Source of the DNA: a virus
Length of the DNA stretch: 64,000 nucleotides
Strand: one strand, 5' to 3'
Virus record (IMG/VR): IMGVR_UViG_3300030109_001309
Span: 5,276-69,275 of that record
Of this stretch, positions 23,472-45,040 are shown piece by piece. The notes under the pieces were generated by a model, which had not been told where the DNA came from, ran no database searches, and was given only the letters and a program-made list of their open reading frames with translations. Position numbers and translations under genes: made by a program. The number at the start of each line of letters is the position of its first letter. The first letter of the stretch is position 1.

Positions 23472-24182
23472 CTATATAACAAACCCACTCGTATCATTAC
23501 GAGCTTCGCCTTTAGCTTTAAGACCAACGATAACATATTTTTTATCTAAAAATCTAAGATCATCTTGATCTCCATCAATTACTTCATACTTGATAGGCAC
23601 ATGATCCCATGCTGTACGTGGTCCCCATATGTAGTGTTTAGGTACATTCTTAAACACAAAGGATACGTTACATCCATTAGACAATGCCATCCAACAATCT
23701 TTCATGTTATTCTCACTTCTACTAAAAGTCAAGTGATAATTTTTAGGGAGTTGGTTTTTCCCATACAGATATGCACGTTTAGGTATCTTAGTGTAATCAT
23801 AAAAATTTACATCTGGAAATTCATCCATGATACCTGTAGTTTCCCAAGGAAAATCACTTGTACCATTCAAACGAATTGCTACTAACATATCTTTGCGAGA
23901 TGCTTTAGCAATAAGTTTTTTAATATCCAAACGTAGCTCATGCATAAACAGTTTACGATGCTCCATGAAGTATTTAGTTTTTCGTATACGAGCGTGCTGC
24001 ACATTGCTCATCTTACCTCTACCAGCAGTATACAAACACGATTCAGCGCATCCATTTGATGCTTTTGCACACATATTATACCCAGATATTTTGTGTGGTG
24101 CTAAGTACAGGATGCCTGTCATAACCCCACGCTTTACACCCTTAATAGTTTTAGCGTCATTGTTAACTGATAGTAAATTCAT
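23472..24182 (-). CDS. Conserved phage protein with C-x6-C-x3-C motif (GP88-like)
   Basis: CAKASNGCAESC, RLNGTSD, FYDYTK, DLRFLD; family name from memory. Confidence 0.55.
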   Translation of the reverse strand: MNLLSVNNDAKTIKGVKRGVMTGILYLAPHKISGYNMCAKASNGCAESCLYTAGRGKMSNVQHARIRKTKYFMEHRKLFMHELRLDIKKLIAKASRKDMLVAIRLNGTSDFPWETTGIMDEFPDVNFYDYTKIPKRAYLYGKNQLPKNYHLTFSRSENNMKDCWMALSNGCNVSFVFKNVPKHYIWGPRTAWDHVPIKYEVIDGDQDDLRFLDKKYVIVGLKAKGEARNDTSGFVI

Positions 24183-24406
24183 AATACTACCCCTTTACTT
24201 TCGTAATACTTTTTCAATACTTGGTTATACCTTTTCATATCATATATATACAAGGTTTCTTCTTGTCTATCATATGCCCAAAGAGGATAGGGTAAAGGCG
24301 GTTTAATCCAATTGTCTTCGATGTCTTCCATTATTGCCTGTTCCATCTTTGATAAACACAGTTTTGTGTTAGATGGTAAACTTAAATTTACCAATCTGTT
24401 TTGCAT
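24179..24406 (-). CDS. Hypothetical early protein
   Basis: RBS AGGAG; stop overlaps the next start. Confidence 0.55.
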   Translation of the reverse strand: MQNRLVNLSLPSNTKLCLSKMEQAIMEDIEDNWIKPPLPYPLWAYDRQEETLYIYDMKRYNQVLKKYYESKGVVL

Positions 24407-24416
24407 TACTTTTCTC

Positions 24417-24626
24417 CTATACTATCTGAAGAAATCCTATACCATTCCCTTCAGGATCACGCATTACCCATGCACATTTAGTCTTCTTACCTTTACGAAA
24501 ACTAATTCCAATACAAGGTTTACCAAACTCTGCAATAGTCTCATCGTAATCATCTACAATGATCCTTTCTACTGTGTATCCTAACAGTTGTTGATACTCA
24601 TTTGCATATTTATTACTATCGTCCAT
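24417..24626 (-). CDS. Hypothetical early protein
   Basis: RDPEGNGIGFL motif; TAATG coupling with the upstream gene. Confidence 0.6.
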   Translation of the reverse strand: MDDSNKYANEYQQLLGYTVERIIVDDYDETIAEFGKPCIGISFRKGKKTKCAWVMRDPEGNGIGFLQIV

Positions 24627-24925
24627 TACATTACCTCCGATAAGTTAGCTTTGAAATGTAAGTCACGCTCTACACGTAGACCTAAAGAACCTCGTACACT
24701 TTCCAAGTCAGACAACATGAAGTATCCAAACTCAGGGTAATGCCCATCTACCCATCCAAAGAACCGCCAATCATCACCCTCTGGATTGCCTTCAGTTACA
24801 TACCAAGTCCATGAGCTATCAGGTGTAAAAAACTTGGCAACAACAGGAATATTTTTGGCCTCTGTACTGTCATGTGTACCCAAACCTGGAATTTTCTTTT
24901 CGATTTCTTTTGTCATAAGTTTCAT
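24626..24925 (-). CDS. DUF2958-like protein
   Basis: KFFTP..WTWY.TE...FFG.V.G..EFGYF.L...G..VERDL pattern. Confidence 0.75.
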   Translation of the reverse strand: MKLMTKEIEKKIPGLGTHDSTEAKNIPVVAKFFTPDSSWTWYVTEGNPEGDDWRFFGWVDGHYPEFGYFMLSDLESVRGSLGLRVERDLHFKANLSEVM

Positions 24926-24936
24926 GTTACTTCTCC

Positions 24937-25143
24937 CTATTTTACTGATTTAATTTTACCATCTTTCATAGTTACTTGAGCAAAAAACTCACGCCCTTGT
25001 CCAGTAATGTGAGGACGATTTGCTCCAGTTAATGTACCATTTAACTGATACTCTGGACCAAACATACTAGTCTCAATAAAGTTCAAAGGTTTACCGATAC
25101 TTTTTTTAAGAACTTTTTTACTAGGGTAATTAAAGATAAGCAT
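24937..25143 (-). CDS. Small hypothetical phage protein
   Basis: YPSKK.LK..IG...ETSMFG.EY...REFFA.VTM.DG.I; operon context. Confidence 0.65.
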   Translation of the reverse strand: MLIFNYPSKKVLKKSIGKPLNFIETSMFGPEYQLNGTLTGANRPHITGQGREFFAQVTMKDGKIKSVK

Positions 25144-25147
25144 TATA

Positions 25148-25333
25148 TTACTTCTCCTCTAATGTAGTTATATAATTTTCTTGAACTTCTGTTAGTTTCT
25201 TATAGATATCTATAATAGATGTGTAATCTTTTATACGTTTAGAAAGGTACACCCTTTGTTCTTCTAATTCGTATATGTTTTTTTCTAAAGTTTTTACCTT
25301 TTGCTTTAGTATAATTATGTCTTCTTGTTTCAT
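25148..25333 (-). CDS. Small coiled-coil protein
   Basis: RBS AGGAG; heptad pattern. Confidence 0.55.
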   Translation of the reverse strand: MKQEDIIILKQKVKTLEKNIYELEEQRVYLSKRIKDYTSIIDIYKKLTEVQENYITTLEEK

Positions 25334-25408
25334 AGTATTTGTACTCCTATCTCATTACTCAGAACTTTTTCTGAATACATTAATAATATCAATAACATAA
25401 CCTCCCAA

Positions 25409-25504
25409 TTATCCAGTTAAAATTAACACCATATACAACGATGCAAAGAATAATGCAAGTGCTATTGATGCTAGGTACAGTTCACGATCATCGTCATTTT
25501 TCAT
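25409..25504 (-). CDS. 31-aa single-TM peptide (MKNDDDRELYLASIALALFFASLYMVLILTG)
   Basis: Manual translation; RBS AAGGAG. Confidence 0.55.
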   Translation of the reverse strand: MKNDDDRELYLASIALALFFASLYMVLILTG

Positions 25505-25522
25505 TAATTAATCTCCTTTTTA

Positions 25523-25550
25523 GTGACACATTGTAAGAACTTGCAAGGTC
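25523..25550. repeat. 28-bp inverted repeat, arm downstream of the 173-aa ORF
   Basis: GTGACACATTGTAAGAACTTGCAAGGTC matches the reverse complement of 26125..26152 at 25/28. Confidence 0.9.
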
Positions 25551-25575
25551 AATGGTTTTTGAAAAAAGAAACGCT

Positions 25576-26097
25576 CTATGCGTTTAGTGTTACTTCTGGA
25601 GCTTTCGCATTTAATTGACGCTTCCAGTACTCCAGAGTCTCTCCAGCGGATGCGTCTTTGGCCTTACGCTTGCCAAACTTAGTAACAATCTTATGCAACT
25701 CTTTGTTAAGCATAGTTGCATCGTACTCAAGATCGTCTTGATCTTTACGAGCTACACCAATCCAGTAGTTTTCCATTGATGCTTCTTCTACGTTTGCACG
25801 ATCTGCTCGCTTGTTTTCTTCATCTCGTACAAATTTCTTTTGCTCACGATCATACACTTGGTCTGAATATGTTTCTACCCACACACGAAAGTAAGTAGCA
25901 CCCACACCAGCATCAATATGCCACGTTAAGGCTTGGTTAATTTTACTATGATCGCCACACTTGGCATAGTGAGCAAGAGCATACAAAGCTACGTTCCACA
26001 AGTTACGCTTCCCACTTTTAAATTGGGACACGCCAGTTTTACCAGCTTTGACAAATTGCTCATCGTTTTTAATTGCAAGTTTTAGTACTTTTGCCAT
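25576..26097 (-). CDS. Early protein of unknown function (173 aa)
   Basis: Long ORF with RBS AAGGA; ALAHYAKCGD segment; enclosed by inverted repeats. Confidence 0.8.
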   Translation of the reverse strand: MAKVLKLAIKNDEQFVKAGKTGVSQFKSGKRNLWNVALYALAHYAKCGDHSKINQALTWHIDAGVGATYFRVWVETYSDQVYDREQKKFVRDEENKRADRANVEEASMENYWIGVARKDQDDLEYDATMLNKELHKIVTKFGKRKAKDASAGETLEYWKRQLNAKAPEVTLNA

Positions 26098-26124
26098 GAT
26101 AGTCTATCCTTCTCGTAGTAGATA

Positions 26125-26152
26125 GACCTTACAAGCTCTTACAATATGTCAC
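26125..26152. repeat. 28-bp inverted repeat, arm upstream of the 173-aa ORF
   Basis: GACCTTACAAGCTCTTACAATATGTCAC; partner of 25523..25550. Confidence 0.9.
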
Positions 26153-26452
26153 GCATAGTCAGTCTAGCTGTAGTGTTTGGTTTAACCTTGAAAAGTATAT
26201 TGCCATCGCTTTTGCCCTACGTAAACGCTAGGGATAAAACAGCCAGCATACAATCAAACGGTCCACTCGCAATTGACTTTGTATCGGTTCAACGACTTTG
26301 GCTTGGTCCAGGCACAAGTGTTGCTAGTACTCGCACCAGACTACCATCATTTTATCAGGATTTACCGTACCATTTCAGGCACGCACCTAACTATGCGATC
26401 TTGAATTGGGTTAGAATTTAACCCGCAAAACAGACTATTTCTAATCTGTTTT
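26152..26452 (-). ncRNA. Putative large structured RNA
   Basis: 11-bp closing helix 26397-26387/26162-26152, several internal helices, GAAA-capped 11-bp hairpin 26427..26452; G-U wobbles favour the minus strand. Confidence 0.65.
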
Positions 26453-26457
26453 AAATG

Positions 26458-26670
26458 TTAAATCCATTTACCGTTATTTTTGATCCTGCGGTCATGTCTC
26501 CAATTCCAAGACCAGTCAGGCCTAGATTTTCCACTTGGAAACAAATTCTCAAAATTTCCTTTAGTTAAGGAACGCTCACCTATTACCGCCCTAGCTCTGA
26601 TACCTTGGGCATATGCCAGCAAATCCCTTTGCTGTTTAGCTAACCGTTCCCTTTTACCTAGTCTAGCCAT
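26458..26670 (-). CDS. First early gene, basic hypothetical protein
   Basis: RBS GGAGG; 70 aa. Confidence 0.65.
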   Translation of the reverse strand: MARLGKRERLAKQQRDLLAYAQGIRARAVIGERSLTKGNFENLFPSGKSRPDWSWNWRHDRRIKNNGKWI

Positions 26671-26710
26671 AGAGGCCTCCCATGTAAAAAGTTAATCTAT
26701 AAAATAGGAT

Positions 26711-26725
26711 TTAATATTGAGTTAA
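26711..26725. promoter_or_regulatory. CtrA-like box
   Basis: TTAA-TATTGAG-TTAA (TTAA-N7-TTAA); could be chance in AT-rich DNA. Confidence 0.3.
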
Positions 26726-26751
26726 TCAATCACCTATATTTGATGATTATG

Positions 26752-26780
26752 AGACTATAGGAGTTTGATATTGTTGTCTA
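26752..26780 (-). promoter_or_regulatory. Candidate early promoter with UP-like A/T tract
   Basis: TAGACA-17 bp-TAGTCT on minus strand, with A/T tracts upstream. Confidence 0.45.
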
Positions 26781-26853
26781 CAAAAAAAATAATTATTTTT
26801 ATTCTTCAATGTTTTCAATGGGTTATAAAGAATATTAGAACAATTCTAAAAAG

Positions 26854-26862
26854 TTATCCACA
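26854..26862 (+). promoter_or_regulatory. DnaA box
   Basis: Perfect TTATCCACA in the main non-coding region. Confidence 0.5.
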
Positions 26863-26892
26863 GGCAAAAACAATAAAAAAAATAATATGGAG

Positions 26893-26949
26893 TCGGGTAA
26901 ATAGACTATCATTAAATAAATATAATCTATTATTAATCGGGTAAATAGA
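26893..26949. repeat. 13-bp direct repeat TCGGGTAAATAGA, two copies
   Basis: Copies at 26893..26905 and 26937..26949. Confidence 0.8.
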
Positions 26950-26992
26950 ATAGATCAATGTAATGATAGTTAAAAACTATATAATCGATATA

Positions 26993-27005
26993 TATCAATA
27001 GATTA
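26993..27005 (+). promoter_or_regulatory. IHF-like site
   Basis: TATCAA-TAGA-TTA fits WATCAA-N4-TTR; one-mismatch versions near 26813 and 27388. Confidence 0.4.
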
Positions 27006-27083
27006 AATGAATGTAGTAATAGCTTAAACCTATCAAGATCCCGAACAATTAAAATGAAATAGATAATATATTTTTTGCTTGAC

Positions 27084-27167
27084 TGTGACATTTATGCAAC
27101 AGCCAGGCAGTGTGACATTTATGCAACAGTGGTATTTATGCAACAGTACTGTGACATTTATGCAACA
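27084..27167. repeat. Four copies of the 18-bp TGTGACATTTATGCAACA
   Basis: Exact at 27084, 27111 and 27150; degenerate at 27128. Confidence 0.92.
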
Positions 27168-27175
27168 ATATATTT

Positions 27176-27190
27176 GTTCACGTTTTGTTC
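27176..27190 (+). promoter_or_regulatory. Alphaproteobacterial-type LexA (SOS) box
   Basis: GTTC-ACGTTTT-GTTC fits GTTC-N7-GTTC. Confidence 0.6.
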
Positions 27191-27275
27191 TTCTAGGGCC
27201 ATAATGGGGGTTTCAATGCTGTGGTGCTTTTTTCACACACCCTAAAAATTACTCAGAGAAATTACACAATAGTTC

Positions 27276-27304
27276 TTGACAAGCTACACAGACCGGGCTA
27301 TTAT
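27276..27304 (+). promoter_or_regulatory. Sigma70-type promoter
   Basis: TTGACA-17 bp-TATTAT. Confidence 0.65.
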
Positions 27305-27433
27305 ATATTTATATAGATACATTACTTATAATAATTATAATTATAATTTTCTTTATAGTACTTACAGTAATATAATTAATATAAGTATTTCAATAACTTA
27401 GGGTTTCGCAGCATTTTTAATTTTTTTGGTATA

Positions 27434-27462
27434 TTGACTTTATAATTCCTTTGTGTTATAAT
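27434..27462 (+). promoter_or_regulatory. Sigma70-type promoter with extended -10
   Basis: TTGACT-17 bp-TATAAT with TG; ends 8 nt before ATG 27471. Confidence 0.7.
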
Positions 27463-27470
27463 TAGTCATC

Positions 27471-27860
27471 ATGGAAAAACAAAAATCATTTAGAATTGGT
27501 TTAGCTTTAATACTAATTTTATTTTTTTCTTTAGTTAGTTTTGCAGCTAATTCAAATCCCCCAAAAGAAATAGCTTTTGTCCGTTTTGTTTGTTTTCATA
27601 AAAATGCTATAGATAGATTAATAGCAGACGATAAAATTGATAGAAACAAAGCAATGCTAACTTTTAGAGTATTAGTTCAACTAAGAGCTTGTGCAGTTAT
27701 GCCACAAGGAAAACTTTTAAAAATTAATAGAACTTTAGAAGAATACAAAGACTCTAAAGGTGATCCTACTTTTTTAATTGAAATTATAGATCAAGCACAA
27801 AATGTATTCTACACAATTATTGAAAAACAAAATATAAAAGAACAAGGATTAAAAGTATGA
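27471..27860 (+). CDS. Exported or membrane-anchored hypothetical protein
   Basis: Signal-peptide-like N-terminus; two Cys. Confidence 0.6.
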   Translation: MEKQKSFRIGLALILILFFSLVSFAANSNPPKEIAFVRFVCFHKNAIDRLIADDKIDRNKAMLTFRVLVQLRACAVMPQGKLLKINRTLEEYKDSKGDPTFLIEIIDQAQNVFYTIIEKQNIKEQGLKV

Positions 27861-28393
27861 AATACCCAGAACATAAAAAAATATTAAAAGATGTACAAGG
27901 AAGGTATAGAACACAATCTTTGTTTAAAGAGTTTTATCTTAAAGACATAGACCCTTTGTGGACTTTAAAGGATGAGGATACCCAAGGTAATCTTCCAAGT
28001 CTTAAAAAACTTTACATGGATTTAGAAGACCCAACTGAATATCAATTTGCTTTAGAAGCTTTTGGTTCTTGGCAGCACTGGATAAAAATTAAATCATCAG
28101 CAGCTATTAAACCTTTTATTGAAGATTGGGCTATTGAACTAGAAGTAGCTTTGCGCTCTAAAGGTATACGTCTTGTAGCTCAAGAAGCTTTAAATGGTAA
28201 ATCAAAGTTTAATGCAGCCAAGTTTTTAGCTGAAGGCCAATGGAGAAAAACAGATCACAAACGAGGCAGACCAAGTAAAGAAGAGGTAGTAAGAGAATTA
28301 AAAATAGCTGCTAAACTAGATTCTGAAATAGGAGAAGATGCAGCACGACTAGGCTTGCACGTAATCCAAGGATCGAAAGACGATGCCAGCTAA
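27857..28393 (+). CDS. Putative terminase small subunit
   Basis: 178 aa upstream of TerL; DPTEYQFA, RGRPSKEE; assignment largely positional. Confidence 0.55.
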   Translation: MKYPEHKKILKDVQGRYRTQSLFKEFYLKDIDPLWTLKDEDTQGNLPSLKKLYMDLEDPTEYQFALEAFGSWQHWIKIKSSAAIKPFIEDWAIELEVALRSKGIRLVAQEALNGKSKFNAAKFLAEGQWRKTDHKRGRPSKEEVVRELKIAAKLDSEIGEDAARLGLHVIQGSKDDAS

Positions 28394-42829: not shown

Positions 42830-45040
42830 ATGGCTGTTGGTGCAAAACCGTATAATACTTTTGTAGCTGGTTTAATTACAGAAGCTGGTCCTTTAACATT
42901 TCCTGAAAATGCAAGCCACGATGAACTTAATTGTATTTTGTTTCGTAAAGGAAATAGACGTAGAAGGCTTGGTATTGACTACGAAAATAGTTATGCTTTA
43001 AGTTCAGCTACAATTACAGAAGCTCAAGCTAGAGACAAAGCTATTCGTACTCACGTATGGTCTTCTGTAGCTGGTAATGGTAATAGAAACTTTTTAATTA
43101 TCCAACTTGATTCTACTTTACACTACTATGATTTAAGTACTGACCCATTAAGTAATGGTAAAAAATCTTTTACTACTGATTTAAATACATACAAAGCTAC
43201 AGGCGTAACTGATGTAGGAAGTGAACCTGTTTCAGTTACATCAGGAAGAGGATTAGCAATTGTTAGTTCTAAAACTTTAGAGCCTTTTACAATTGAGTAT
43301 ATTGTTGCTTCTGATACTATTACAGTTACCCCAATTAGTTTACAAATAAGAGACTTTGATGGTGTCGATGATTCACTTGAGCCAGATGAAGAACCTAGTT
43401 CATTAACTGCTGAACATAGTTATAATTTAAAAAATCAAGGATGGAACTCTCCTGGCAGTGGGGAAGCTGATCCAACTACTACGTATCAAAGTTCTAAAAG
43501 TGTTTACCCATCTAATTCTAAACAGTGGTGGATAGCAAAAGATAATGAAGATATTTTTAAACCTGATCTTTTAGCTAAATTTAGTGGAGGTAATACTCTT
43601 GCTCCTAGAGGACATTGGTTACTTAACCCATTTTATAAAGATAGAAGCACTGTTTCAGGTGTAGCAGGAATTACAGTAGAATCAGAAGCTAACAGGGTTC
43701 AATTTGTACAATTTTTTGCAGGAAGAATTTGGTATTTTGGTGTGGACTCTAGTAAAATAAATGGTAATATATTTTTTAGTCAAGTGCTTACAGATGTAGA
43801 TCGTGCAGGAAAGTGTTACCAAGAAGGTGATCCAACATCAGAAGAAAATAATGAACTGTTAGATGATGATGGTGGTGTAATAGTTATACCTGAAATTGGA
43901 AGTATTTTAGGTTCACTTGTTGTAGATAGGTTTCTTATTATTTTTGCGAGTAATGGGTGTTGGGCTATTAGTGGTGCGTCTAATGATGGATTTAAAGCTA
44001 CTGATTTTCAAGTTAACCAAGTTACTACAGTTGGATGCAACAGCACAGGTTCAATTATTGAAGTTGAAAGTAAACCTTATTGGTGGTCTGAAACTGGAAT
44101 ATACACAATTGCTCCAGATCAAATTAGTGGAAGGTTAACAGCACAATCATTAACTCAAAATACAATTGAAACTTTTTATCAAGATGAAATTCCTTCTGTG
44201 TCTAAAGCATTTGCTCAAAGTGTATACGATCCAGCTACCAAAAGAATATACTGGTTTTATAATACAGTTGCTCCTACTAGTGGTAATCAGTATACAGCTA
44301 ATGTTAATGCAGCTTTAATTTTTGATACTTCATTAGGTGCATTTTATCCTTGGCAAATATCATCTTTAGATAGTAATAGTCCTGTTATAGCTGGAGTATT
44401 TAATACTAAGTCTGTTAATGCAGTAGATAACACAGAACTTGTAGCTGATTCAGATGGTGATTTAGTTATTCGTTCTAATGGTGATAGTGTTGTTGTTGAC
44501 GTAACAAGTATATCAGGATCAAATACATTTCTTAAATGGTTTTTCTTAGAGCCTACAGGTTCTAGTACCTACAAGTGGACATTTGGTTTGTTTAATAATG
44601 GAGATTATATTGATTGGGAAACTAAAGACGGTACAGGAAAAACTTATGAATCTTATGTCCAAACAGGTTTTGAAATTGCAGGAGATTTTGTTAAAAAGAA
44701 AACTCCACCGTACATCTACGTTTATTTTGATAAGTCTGAAACTGCTACTGCTGGTGGGGCTTTGGTTAATCCTTCATCTTGTTTCTTAACTACTAAATTT
44801 GATTGGACTGAAAGCGGAGACACAGGTAAGTGGAGTACTAGAAGACAAATATATAGGTTGAAAAGATACTTTGATAGTGGTATAATTAGTACACACCTGC
44901 CAGGAGAAACACTAGTTGTAGCTAAAGAAAAGATAAGAGGAAGAGGTAGAGCTATACAATTTAGGTTTGAAAGTGAAAGTGGAAAGGACTTTAATATACA
45001 TGGATGGCAAGCAATCTACAACGTCCAAGACGGACTATAA
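42830..45040 (+). CDS. Tail tubular protein B / nozzle-like (genome B)
   Basis: Full-length homologue of 957..3185. Confidence 0.75.
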   Translation: MAVGAKPYNTFVAGLITEAGPLTFPENASHDELNCILFRKGNRRRRLGIDYENSYALSSATITEAQARDKAIRTHVWSSVAGNGNRNFLIIQLDSTLHYYDLSTDPLSNGKKSFTTDLNTYKATGVTDVGSEPVSVTSGRGLAIVSSKTLEPFTIEYIVASDTITVTPISLQIRDFDGVDDSLEPDEEPSSLTAEHSYNLKNQGWNSPGSGEADPTTTYQSSKSVYPSNSKQWWIAKDNEDIFKPDLLAKFSGGNTLAPRGHWLLNPFYKDRSTVSGVAGITVESEANRVQFVQFFAGRIWYFGVDSSKINGNIFFSQVLTDVDRAGKCYQEGDPTSEENNELLDDDGGVIVIPEIGSILGSLVVDRFLIIFASNGCWAISGASNDGFKATDFQVNQVTTVGCNSTGSIIEVESKPYWWSETGIYTIAPDQISGRLTAQSLTQNTIETFYQDEIPSVSKAFAQSVYDPATKRIYWFYNTVAPTSGNQYTANVNAALIFDTSLGAFYPWQISSLDSNSPVIAGVFNTKSVNAVDNTELVADSDGDLVIRSNGDSVVVDVTSISGSNTFLKWFFLEPTGSSTYKWTFGLFNNGDYIDWETKDGTGKTYESYVQTGFEIAGDFVKKKTPPYIYVYFDKSETATAGGALVNPSSCFLTTKFDWTESGDTGKWSTRRQIYRLKRYFDSGIISTHLPGETLVVAKEKIRGRGRAIQFRFESESGKDFNIHGWQAIYNVQDGL

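Follow-up and report, generated by a model that had tools for sequence, protein, structure and literature searches.

In ribosomal RNA (rRNA) operons (rrn), the leader and trailer sequences around 16S and 23S rRNA pair into stalks that are cut by RNase III. In T7 early messenger RNA (mRNA), each junction has its own RNase III site, a local hairpin with internal loops. In hok mRNA, an element at the 5′ end can pair with either the distant 3′ end or a nearby sequence, and which of the two it takes decides translation. The element described here has points in common with all three systems. It lies in the window, the whole 64-kb stretch of DNA from an uncultured marine phage that was analysed (64,000 nt; bases 5276–69275 of the 69,275-bp IMG/VR virus record IMGVR_UViG_3300030109_001309), and consists of a gene for a 173-amino-acid (aa) protein with two flanking arms of 28 nt that can pair with each other along their whole length. 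From comparison with related loci, this pairing is very probably a selected RNA helix formed on the coding strand.

It was only recently that pairing over long distances in bacterial messages proved to be frequent and to direct RNase III, according to the parts of a Bacillus subtilis study drawn on here (PMC11780869). Those parts describe intramolecular mRNA duplexes of 10–36 bp whose two strands, separated by no more than 505 nt, are cut at positions offset by 2 bp, and they indicate that such pairing forms in vivo despite translation (PMC11780869). The B. subtilis sites come from end mapping; in the same parts of the study they are not described as bracketing one cistron or as covarying, and its supplementary tables may list gene-enclosing cases (PMC11780869). 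In the hbs mRNA of B. subtilis and the icaR mRNA of Staphylococcus aureus, as far as the cited excerpts go, pairing between the two untranslated ends of a message controls nuclease access and translation, but the pairing is shorter than here (14 bp in hbs) and the messages are monocistronic and bacterial (PMC5737220, PMC3868564). The T4 genes e, soc, 49 and I-TevI are similar in another respect, since upstream sequence sequesters their Shine–Dalgarno sequence or start and only certain transcript forms are translated; in the T4 text consulted the switch is set by the transcription start, whereas here it would be set by the presence of a distant 3′ arm (PMC3014915). Long-range RNase III duplexes and 5′/3′ pairing are already known from bacterial messages, and inhibitory helices over ribosome binding sites are known from T4 (PMC3014915). 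The present case is set apart by having a stalk around one single cistron of a phage operon, proven by covariation and coupled to a competing hairpin. A literature search found no description of gene-enclosing helices for phage messages.

The likeness to the rRNA stalks lies in the layout. In both, flanking sequences that lie hundreds to thousands of nucleotides apart form a regular helix longer than two turns, and the whole unit is looped out; the same arrangement was found in all ten loci compared here. The differences are that a protein-coding cistron in a phage early operon is looped out, that the inner end of the helix has a competitor in a hairpin covering the ribosome binding site, and that cutting is a prediction from sequence. 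With T7 the locus shares a podovirus background with a T7-like replication module, and a polycistronic early RNA that would be cut between cistrons by a host enzyme. The initial annotation had pointed to the local hairpins of T7 as a parallel, but this does not hold for the structure itself, which is one regular helix with no internal loop and with its strands at two junctions ~575 nt apart.

The enclosed gene occupies positions 25576–26097 on the minus strand and encodes a protein of a phage-only family whose function was not recognised. The 5′ arm (26125–26152, minus strand) lies in the 5′ untranslated region of this gene, and the 3′ arm (25523–25550, minus strand) lies between its stop codon and the ribosome binding site of the next gene. 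Both arms are outside the open reading frame (ORF; 26097–25576) and flank it as had been claimed. The ungapped 28-bp core, 26152–26125 paired with 25550–25523, consists of 25 Watson–Crick and 3 G-U pairs with zero unpaired positions, which bears out the earlier statement that the duplex is complete and that its three differences are all G-U wobbles. The core arms are ~574 nt apart, with 27 nt from the end of the 5′ arm to the ATG and 25 nt from the stop codon to the 3′ arm. An inverted-repeat search extended the arms to 31 nt (25523–25553 and 26122–26152; 87% complementary, 568 nt apart), and this extension leaves gaps of 24 nt to the ATG and 22 nt from the stop codon.

Chance is excluded as the origin of the helix because four lines of evidence agree. 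When the flanks were shuffled, the observed duplex energy was matched in 0 of 200 shuffles in each of the ten loci. A scan of both strands of the window gave nine helices of at least 22 bp with at most one mismatch, and among these only the enclosing helix is poor in G-U pairs (3 of 31); the other eight carry 4–12 G-U pairs in 22–28 bp, as chance helices do. The arm pair is also the top inverted repeat of the whole window, and a 15-nt core of the arm is found nowhere but in the two arms (8 matches when as many as three mismatches are allowed, against 9.9 expected). The minimum-energy fold of 25480–26470 includes the enclosing helix (z = −6.05). The idea that the arm is a repeated phage promoter was rejected given the restriction of the 15-nt core to both arms. 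Consensus promoter scans gave nothing convincing just upstream of the arms in the related loci L005, L011 and L013.

The comparison rests on relatives of the 173-aa protein found in metagenomes. One relative is 70% identical, and exhaustive HMMER searches gave six more of 114–171 aa, along with a weak local match in a further protein of 4805 aa. The relatives have in common a motif around A-x-x-H-Y-x-x-x-G-D. Pattern scans gave five loci from IMG/VR and seven from metagenome contigs. L004 and L007 were left out, with the gene cut by the contig end and one flank missing, as were L009, L015 and L029, which belong to the L003 contig. Nine loci and the window then made up the ten rows of the comparison (window, L003, L005, L006, L008 and L010–L014), with proteins 35–55% identical to that of the window. 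The ten rows hold six distinct arm pairs: that of the window and L008; those of L003, L005 and L006; that of L010, L011, L012 and L014; and that of L013. Cultured relatives were not found among GenBank phages, either by tblastn with three proteins (P0001, P0004 and P0007) or by blastn with 25100–27500, and a scan of genome contigs found no relative.

All ten rows have an ungapped helix of at least 26 bp around the ORF, and the six distinct helices, once trimmed, are 26–30 bp long. The window and L003 each have 28 bp without mismatch, with 3 and 4 G-U pairs, respectively. L005 has 29 bp with 3 G-U pairs and one C-U mismatch, and L006 has 30 bp with 3 G-U pairs and one U-U mismatch. The L011 group has 26 bp with 2 G-U pairs and no mismatch, and L013 has 26 bp with 1 G-U pair and one U-U mismatch. 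Pairs were counted by script on the arm pairs, as the full-length alignment was not register-consistent in the arms. In total, 167 pairs comprise 148 Watson–Crick pairs, 16 G-U pairs, 0 A-C pairs and 3 mismatches. Judged from their alignment, the 5′ arms descend from one ancestor, and 26 of its 32 columns have changed on both sides with pairing kept. The initial annotation had considered that homologues might lack complementary flanks. The opposite was found, with the helix kept in every row around diverged sequence, and the divergent yet complementary arms that it had proposed looking for are present. Because the helix is kept while its sequence changes, it is the RNA pairing that appears to be selected, not a DNA site.

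The strand on which the pairing acts can also be read from the exceptions. Each of the 16 transition-type exceptions is a G-U pair when read on the mRNA strand; read on the opposite strand, none is. In a DNA-level repeat, a transition should be as likely to produce A-C as G-U on any one strand, and with a conservative count of independent events (12 versus 0) the probability of the observed bias is ~2e-4. The sense duplex is 9.5–21 kcal/mol more stable than the antisense duplex in 10 of 10 rows. These two features, the excess of 16 G-U over 0 A-C pairs and the greater stability of the sense duplex, place the selection at the RNA level on the coding strand.

The placement of the arms is similar across lineages. 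The 5′ arm ends 16–28 nt before the start codon, and the 3′ arm begins 0–22 nt past the stop codon (0–14 nt in lineages other than that of the window). The ribosome binding site of the next gene is within a few nucleotides of the 3′ arm in every lineage; in the window its AAGGAG is 5 nt beyond the arm. The centre of the helix stands out in that the alignment hardly varies at columns 17–22 (A, G, C, any, T, G). These columns lie 14–16 bp from the outer end, at 26131–26137 and 25538–25544 in the window, and column 18 forms a G-U pair in four of the six distinct sequences. The nearly invariant centre may be a recognition or cutting site.

The near-invariant centre with its recurrent G-U pair suggests sequence-specific recognition beyond shape, and the helix always accompanies the same protein family and the same small upstream gene, which encodes a basic protein starting MARLGKRER. 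On this basis the helix could be an operator or decoy for a factor that binds double-stranded RNA, such as the 173-aa protein itself, the small basic protein or a host sensor of double-stranded RNA. This is improbable. Only neighbourhood connects either protein to RNA, the predicted fold of the 173-aa protein is helical with one beta hairpin and matched no known RNA-binding fold, and a proximal box for RNase III explains the conserved centre equally well.

Viewed as DNA, the locus is an inverted repeat around one gene, and related strains have mosaic breakpoints close beyond the 3′ arm, so that the unit may be mobile as a cassette. The repeat could accordingly be a pair of recombination sites for an invertible segment, the terminal inverted repeats of a small mobile cassette, or a cruciform. 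Each of these is highly improbable, and the DNA-level reading is largely refuted. Sites for recombinases and transposases keep their sequence, whereas these arms diverge yet stay complementary, and an asymmetry of 16 G-U to 0 A-C pairs is not perceptible to double-stranded DNA. Inversion of the segment had been named at the outset as the outcome that would point to DNA recombination sites; contigs of four DNA runs contain no inverted joint, with the qualification that contigs drop rare variants and a rare inversion could escape this check. Two of the contigs (X1 record 1 and X4 record 15) cross both arms in collinear order. Among 21 sequencing runs listed, none that contains the stretch is on record as RNA. 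No direct repeats flanking the arms were seen on reading the sequence, and no recombinase was found among the neighbouring genes scanned against Pfam.

Among the variants listed, only one lies in an arm. At 25549, T is replaced by C on the plus strand in runs X3 and X4, corresponding to A to G in the RNA, and this turns an A-U pair into a G-U pair. Synteny breaks in the same material fall just beyond the 3′ arm, with X3 contigs diverging at 25518/25519 and X4 having 122 replaced letters at 25505–25510. That the breaks are outside the 3′ arm suggests that the arms and the gene travel as one unit. The breaks across 25505–25519 suggest a recombination boundary at the edge of the module. A group I or group II intron with a peripheral ORF was rejected as an identity for the element, given that Rfam gave no intron match in 24000–28000 at E ≤ 1 or in 26090–26470 at E ≤ 10. 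An intron is also disfavoured by the stop codon that ends the upstream ORF and by the next ribosome binding site directly after the 3′ arm.

The inner end of the helix meets a second structure, a local hairpin at 26101–26128 on the minus strand (stems 26128–26120 and 26109–26101; −10.2 kcal/mol, with 2% of 500 spacer shuffles as good). The hairpin had been described initially as sharing three nucleotides with the arm and covering most of the AAGGA Shine–Dalgarno sequence. It is present and is kept across the lineages, but in the minimum-energy fold it shares four nucleotides, the terminal GGTC of the 5′ arm, and AAGGA (26111–26107) is covered in part, as it lies across the hairpin loop and 3′ strand. 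An equivalent hairpin was found in all six distinct sequences, where it is built from different letters, uses 4–7 nt of the arm and covers the Shine–Dalgarno sequence or, in L011, the start codon. The hairpin energies range from −5.8 to −10.2 kcal/mol, and a fraction of 0.004–0.09 of 500 spacer shuffles fold as well.

This arrangement could act as a toggle. The inner 4–7 nt of the 5′ arm would have a second, local partner between the Shine–Dalgarno sequence and the start codon. Before the 3′ arm exists, or after its loss, the small hairpin would close the ribosome binding site; when the 3′ arm is paired, the long helix would take the shared nucleotides and leave the site freer, tying translation to a complete 3′ end. 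Partition-function folds of the RNA from arm to arm give this idea modest computational support. The long helix keeps its inner 6 bp at a probability of 0.87–1.0, and in five of the six sequences the presence of the 3′ arm makes the Shine–Dalgarno sequence likelier to be unpaired (0.50 with the arm versus 0.40 without it in the window). L003 is the exception, where the Shine–Dalgarno sequence is unpaired at 0.48 with the 3′ arm and 0.61 without it. That the toggle acts as described has somewhat less than an even chance.

The comparison with hok/sok, which the initial annotation had raised, applies to the logic of alternative pairing and not to family membership. In both cases a 5′–3′ fold-back competes with a local alternative structure, which is predicted in the present locus. 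The polarity would be reversed, because the 5′–3′ pairing of hok silences its mRNA and the predicted effect here is the opposite. The proteins also differ, with the hok type being a small hydrophobic toxin of ~50 aa and the protein here having 173 aa and a predicted soluble helical fold. The hok/sok type also has a cis-encoded antisense RNA over the leader. No such RNA is evident here, and a consensus promoter scan found no promoter-like site on the plus strand in 25452–26710, although weak or nonconsensus promoters could escape such a scan. In icaR, the 3′ end reportedly pairs with the Shine–Dalgarno sequence itself and represses translation, whereas here the 3′ arm would compete against a repressing hairpin.

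The reading preferred here is that the helix is a stalk of the RNase III type, through which the host enzyme would excise and stabilise the cistron while the inner end toggles with the hairpin. Taken as a whole, this reading is about as probable as all its rivals together. The comparison shows that the arms pair in the early polycistronic transcript of the minus strand and that the continuous helix of 26–30 bp loops out exactly one cistron. The host RNase III, which is specific for double strands, would then cut the helix as it cuts the leader–trailer stalks of rRNA. Three products would follow: the upstream RNA, the message for the 173-aa protein, and the downstream genes with a short leader before their ribosome binding site. 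The excised message would have both ends in a helical stub, shielded from exonucleases.

Several features of the helix suit such an enzyme. The idealised substrate of Escherichia coli RNase III has 22 bp, or two helical turns, in the part of the source relied on here (PMC3867540), and the helix exceeds this length in all six sequences (26–30 bp with at most one mismatch), although the E. coli rule may not be that of the host. The length also falls inside the 10–36 bp of the B. subtilis duplexes (PMC11780869). A symmetric enzyme would be expected to cut at the conserved centre, which is 14–16 bp in from the outer end. In the three phage records searched, which did not include L011 and L013, there was no match to RNase III (PF14622), while the same search matched 8 of 14 control bacteria; therefore any enzyme involved would be that of the host. 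A search for a single-subunit RNA polymerase (PF00940) matched neither the three phage records nor the controls and is uninformative. The initial annotation had put forward a processing or translation switch. The part of this proposal that has gained ground is the selected RNA pairing and the conserved hairpin that shares nucleotides with the arm; processing by RNase III is still a prediction from the form of the helix, and the odds on it are level.

The helix could also act uncut, as a structural clamp. Pairing of the 5′ and 3′ ends would isolate the cistron as a folding domain and shield its leader and 3′ end from single-strand nucleases (RNase E, Y or J) and from 3′ exonucleases, setting both stability and translation. 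The same comparative evidence fits a clamp, and there are precedents in the portions of the literature cited, namely B. subtilis hbs mRNA, in which a 14-bp pairing between the untranslated regions modulates cleavage by RNase Y (PMC5737220), and the 5′–3′ pairing of untranslated regions in S. aureus icaR mRNA (PMC3868564). The central G-U pairs and single mismatches could serve as antideterminants of RNase III, a concept treated in the pages consulted of PMC3867540. Such antideterminants would be demanded if the helix is to stay uncut, and a regular helix of 26–30 bp is longer than a clamp needs, given the 14 bp of hbs, and has the textbook length of an RNase III substrate. The clamp is for these reasons a rather doubtful alternative.

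Weighing against an RNase III stalk with a toggle are a number of points. The host's RNase III may follow other sequence rules than those used for comparison. A regular helix cut on both strands would sever the downstream replication genes from the promoter-proximal leader, and any benefit of this is a guess. The portion of the hbs work cited above indicates that comparable helices may act uncut, as with its 14-bp 5′/3′ pairing (PMC5737220). Each hairpin taken singly is only modestly better than its shuffles. Finally, the comparison draws on six distinct sequences from about five lineages, which is a small number.

Upstream of the stalk, the spacer between the MARLGKRER gene and the enclosed gene is ~345–406 nt long (for L013, this counts a doubtful 59-codon ORF as noncoding) and has a common predicted layout in five lineages. 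A long hairpin follows the stop codon of the MARLGKRER gene, then a short hairpin, and then a domain of ~240–300 nt closed by a helix of 9–14 bp. In the window, all on the minus strand, the two hairpins are at 26453–26426 and 26424–26408 (26408–26453 together), right after the stop of the first early gene, and they are predicted in all six sequences. The domain itself spans ~245 nt (26153–26396) in the predicted fold and is closed by a 10-bp helix, 26396–26387 paired with 26162–26153. The 5′ strand of the closing helix opens with a shared motif ending in GGTG. The claim that the closing helix of this large RNA abuts the 5′ arm proved correct, with 0 nt between them in the window, and the two also abut in L003. 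The large folded RNA itself stood up as a prediction, in that a helix-closed domain of ~250 nt recurs in all five lineages. A hairpin followed by GTAAATCC is common to the window, L003 and L011. The conserved spacer lies at 26153–26453 (minus strand) in the window, 2885–3194 in L003, 3665–3958 in L005, 3663–3956 in L006, 2089–2445 in L011 and 2153–2454 in L013.

The upstream spacer is a moderately supported candidate for a new phage RNA or a long leader. The fold z-scores of the domain are only −1.6 to −2.0, and nhmmer connects only three of the lineages. Rfam gave only chance-level matches in the window (24000–28000 at E ≤ 1 and 26090–26470 at E ≤ 10) and in the relatives (L003, L005, L011 and L013 at E ≤ 1, and 2880–3255 of L003 at E ≤ 10). 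A MAFFT alignment of the domain yielded no RNAalifold consensus, and the sequences are too few for a covariation test. A motif scan of IMG/VR gave 79 loci, among which nhmmer found no new member of the upstream RNA, and the L003 contig was all that a scan with the small upstream protein recovered. A 91-codon ORF on the plus strand (26146–26421) was rejected as an antisense gene, as the conserved nucleotides fall in different frames in the window and L003. This frame starts inside the 5′ arm and is open in L003 too, and in every lineage the strand opposite the upstream RNA has strikingly few stop codons.

A wider reading would take the whole region as a so far undescribed phage RNA–protein module, conserved as a block and made up of the Arg-rich protein, the two hairpins, the ~250-nt RNA, the stalk-looped gene and the toggle. 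The stalk would then act as a "completion checkpoint," with the message translated only after its 3′ end exists, and a cut at the conserved centre of the stalk would free the upstream RNA as a stable noncoding RNA that works with one of the two proteins. This reading is unlikely. An RNA-plus-protein module had been suggested from the start, but the protein has neither a recognisable function nor an RNA-binding fold.

AlphaFold, run on 13 sequences, predicts ten helices and one beta hairpin for the 173-aa protein with a pLDDT of 86. The protein belongs to no Pfam or PHROG family, and its fold had no match in the PDB at E ≤ 0.001. Searches of BFVD gave only weak matches (E from 4e-4, TM 0.38–0.48) to uncharacterised podovirus proteins of 160–250 aa, with sources including Vibrio phage ICP2 and phiKMV-like phages, and the Atlas gave only unnamed viral clusters. 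From its position alone, an early role in host takeover or antidefence is a guess.

The module sits at the start of a leftward early operon, next to a noncoding region (~26700–27470) from which transcription diverges. In leftward order, the operon runs from the 70-aa basic ORF through 360 nt without an ORF to the 173-aa ORF, the 31-codon ORF and further small genes. The first of these, the MARLGKRER gene (26458–26670, minus strand), is conserved upstream of the module in all lineages; its product is small, rich in Arg and Lys, and without a family. The stop codon of the 173-aa gene is covered by a weak hairpin that resembles a terminator and precedes a T run (25560–25585, minus strand); this hairpin lies inside the helix-closed loop and was seen only in this lineage. 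The next cistron (25409–25518, minus strand), as read from the sequence, has AAGGAG at 25518–25513 and an ATG at 25504. With its hydrophobic core and strong AAGGAG, its 31-codon ORF (25409–25504) is likely to encode a small membrane peptide. Four 20-nt direct repeats at 27082–27167 in the divergence region contain GTGACAT. The same heptamer also opens the 5′ arm in the window and L003, which may be chance.

The record holding the window is itself composite. The gene pattern has a period of ~41.9 kb, with the ORFs at 957–22339 reappearing in diverged form at 42830–63235, and therefore the record contains, head to tail, about one and a half genomes of ~42 kb that are related yet diverged. The assembly probably merged two strains, here called genomes A and B, into a chimeric concatemer, and the genome B copy of the gene-enclosing locus is expected past the end of the record. 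On its minus strand, genome A carries a T7-like replication block with a primase-helicase, a family A DNA polymerase, endonuclease I, ThyX and ribonucleotide reductase. Its polymerase is ~39% identical to those of SIO1-like roseophages and pelagiphages.

Long-range pairings in mRNA that come with evolutionary proof are few, and the literature search found none for phage messages. The double-sided changes and the strand-specific G-U signature seen here are about the strongest comparative proof of an mRNA structure that six sequences can give. They also supply a rule for finding further elements, namely flanks that are complementary and carry their G-U pairs on the coding strand only. At ~630 nt, the locus offers a compact model for how a phage may excise or protect one message from a polycistronic RNA, how translation may be tied to completion of the 3′ end, and whether an upstream noncoding RNA would be released in the process.

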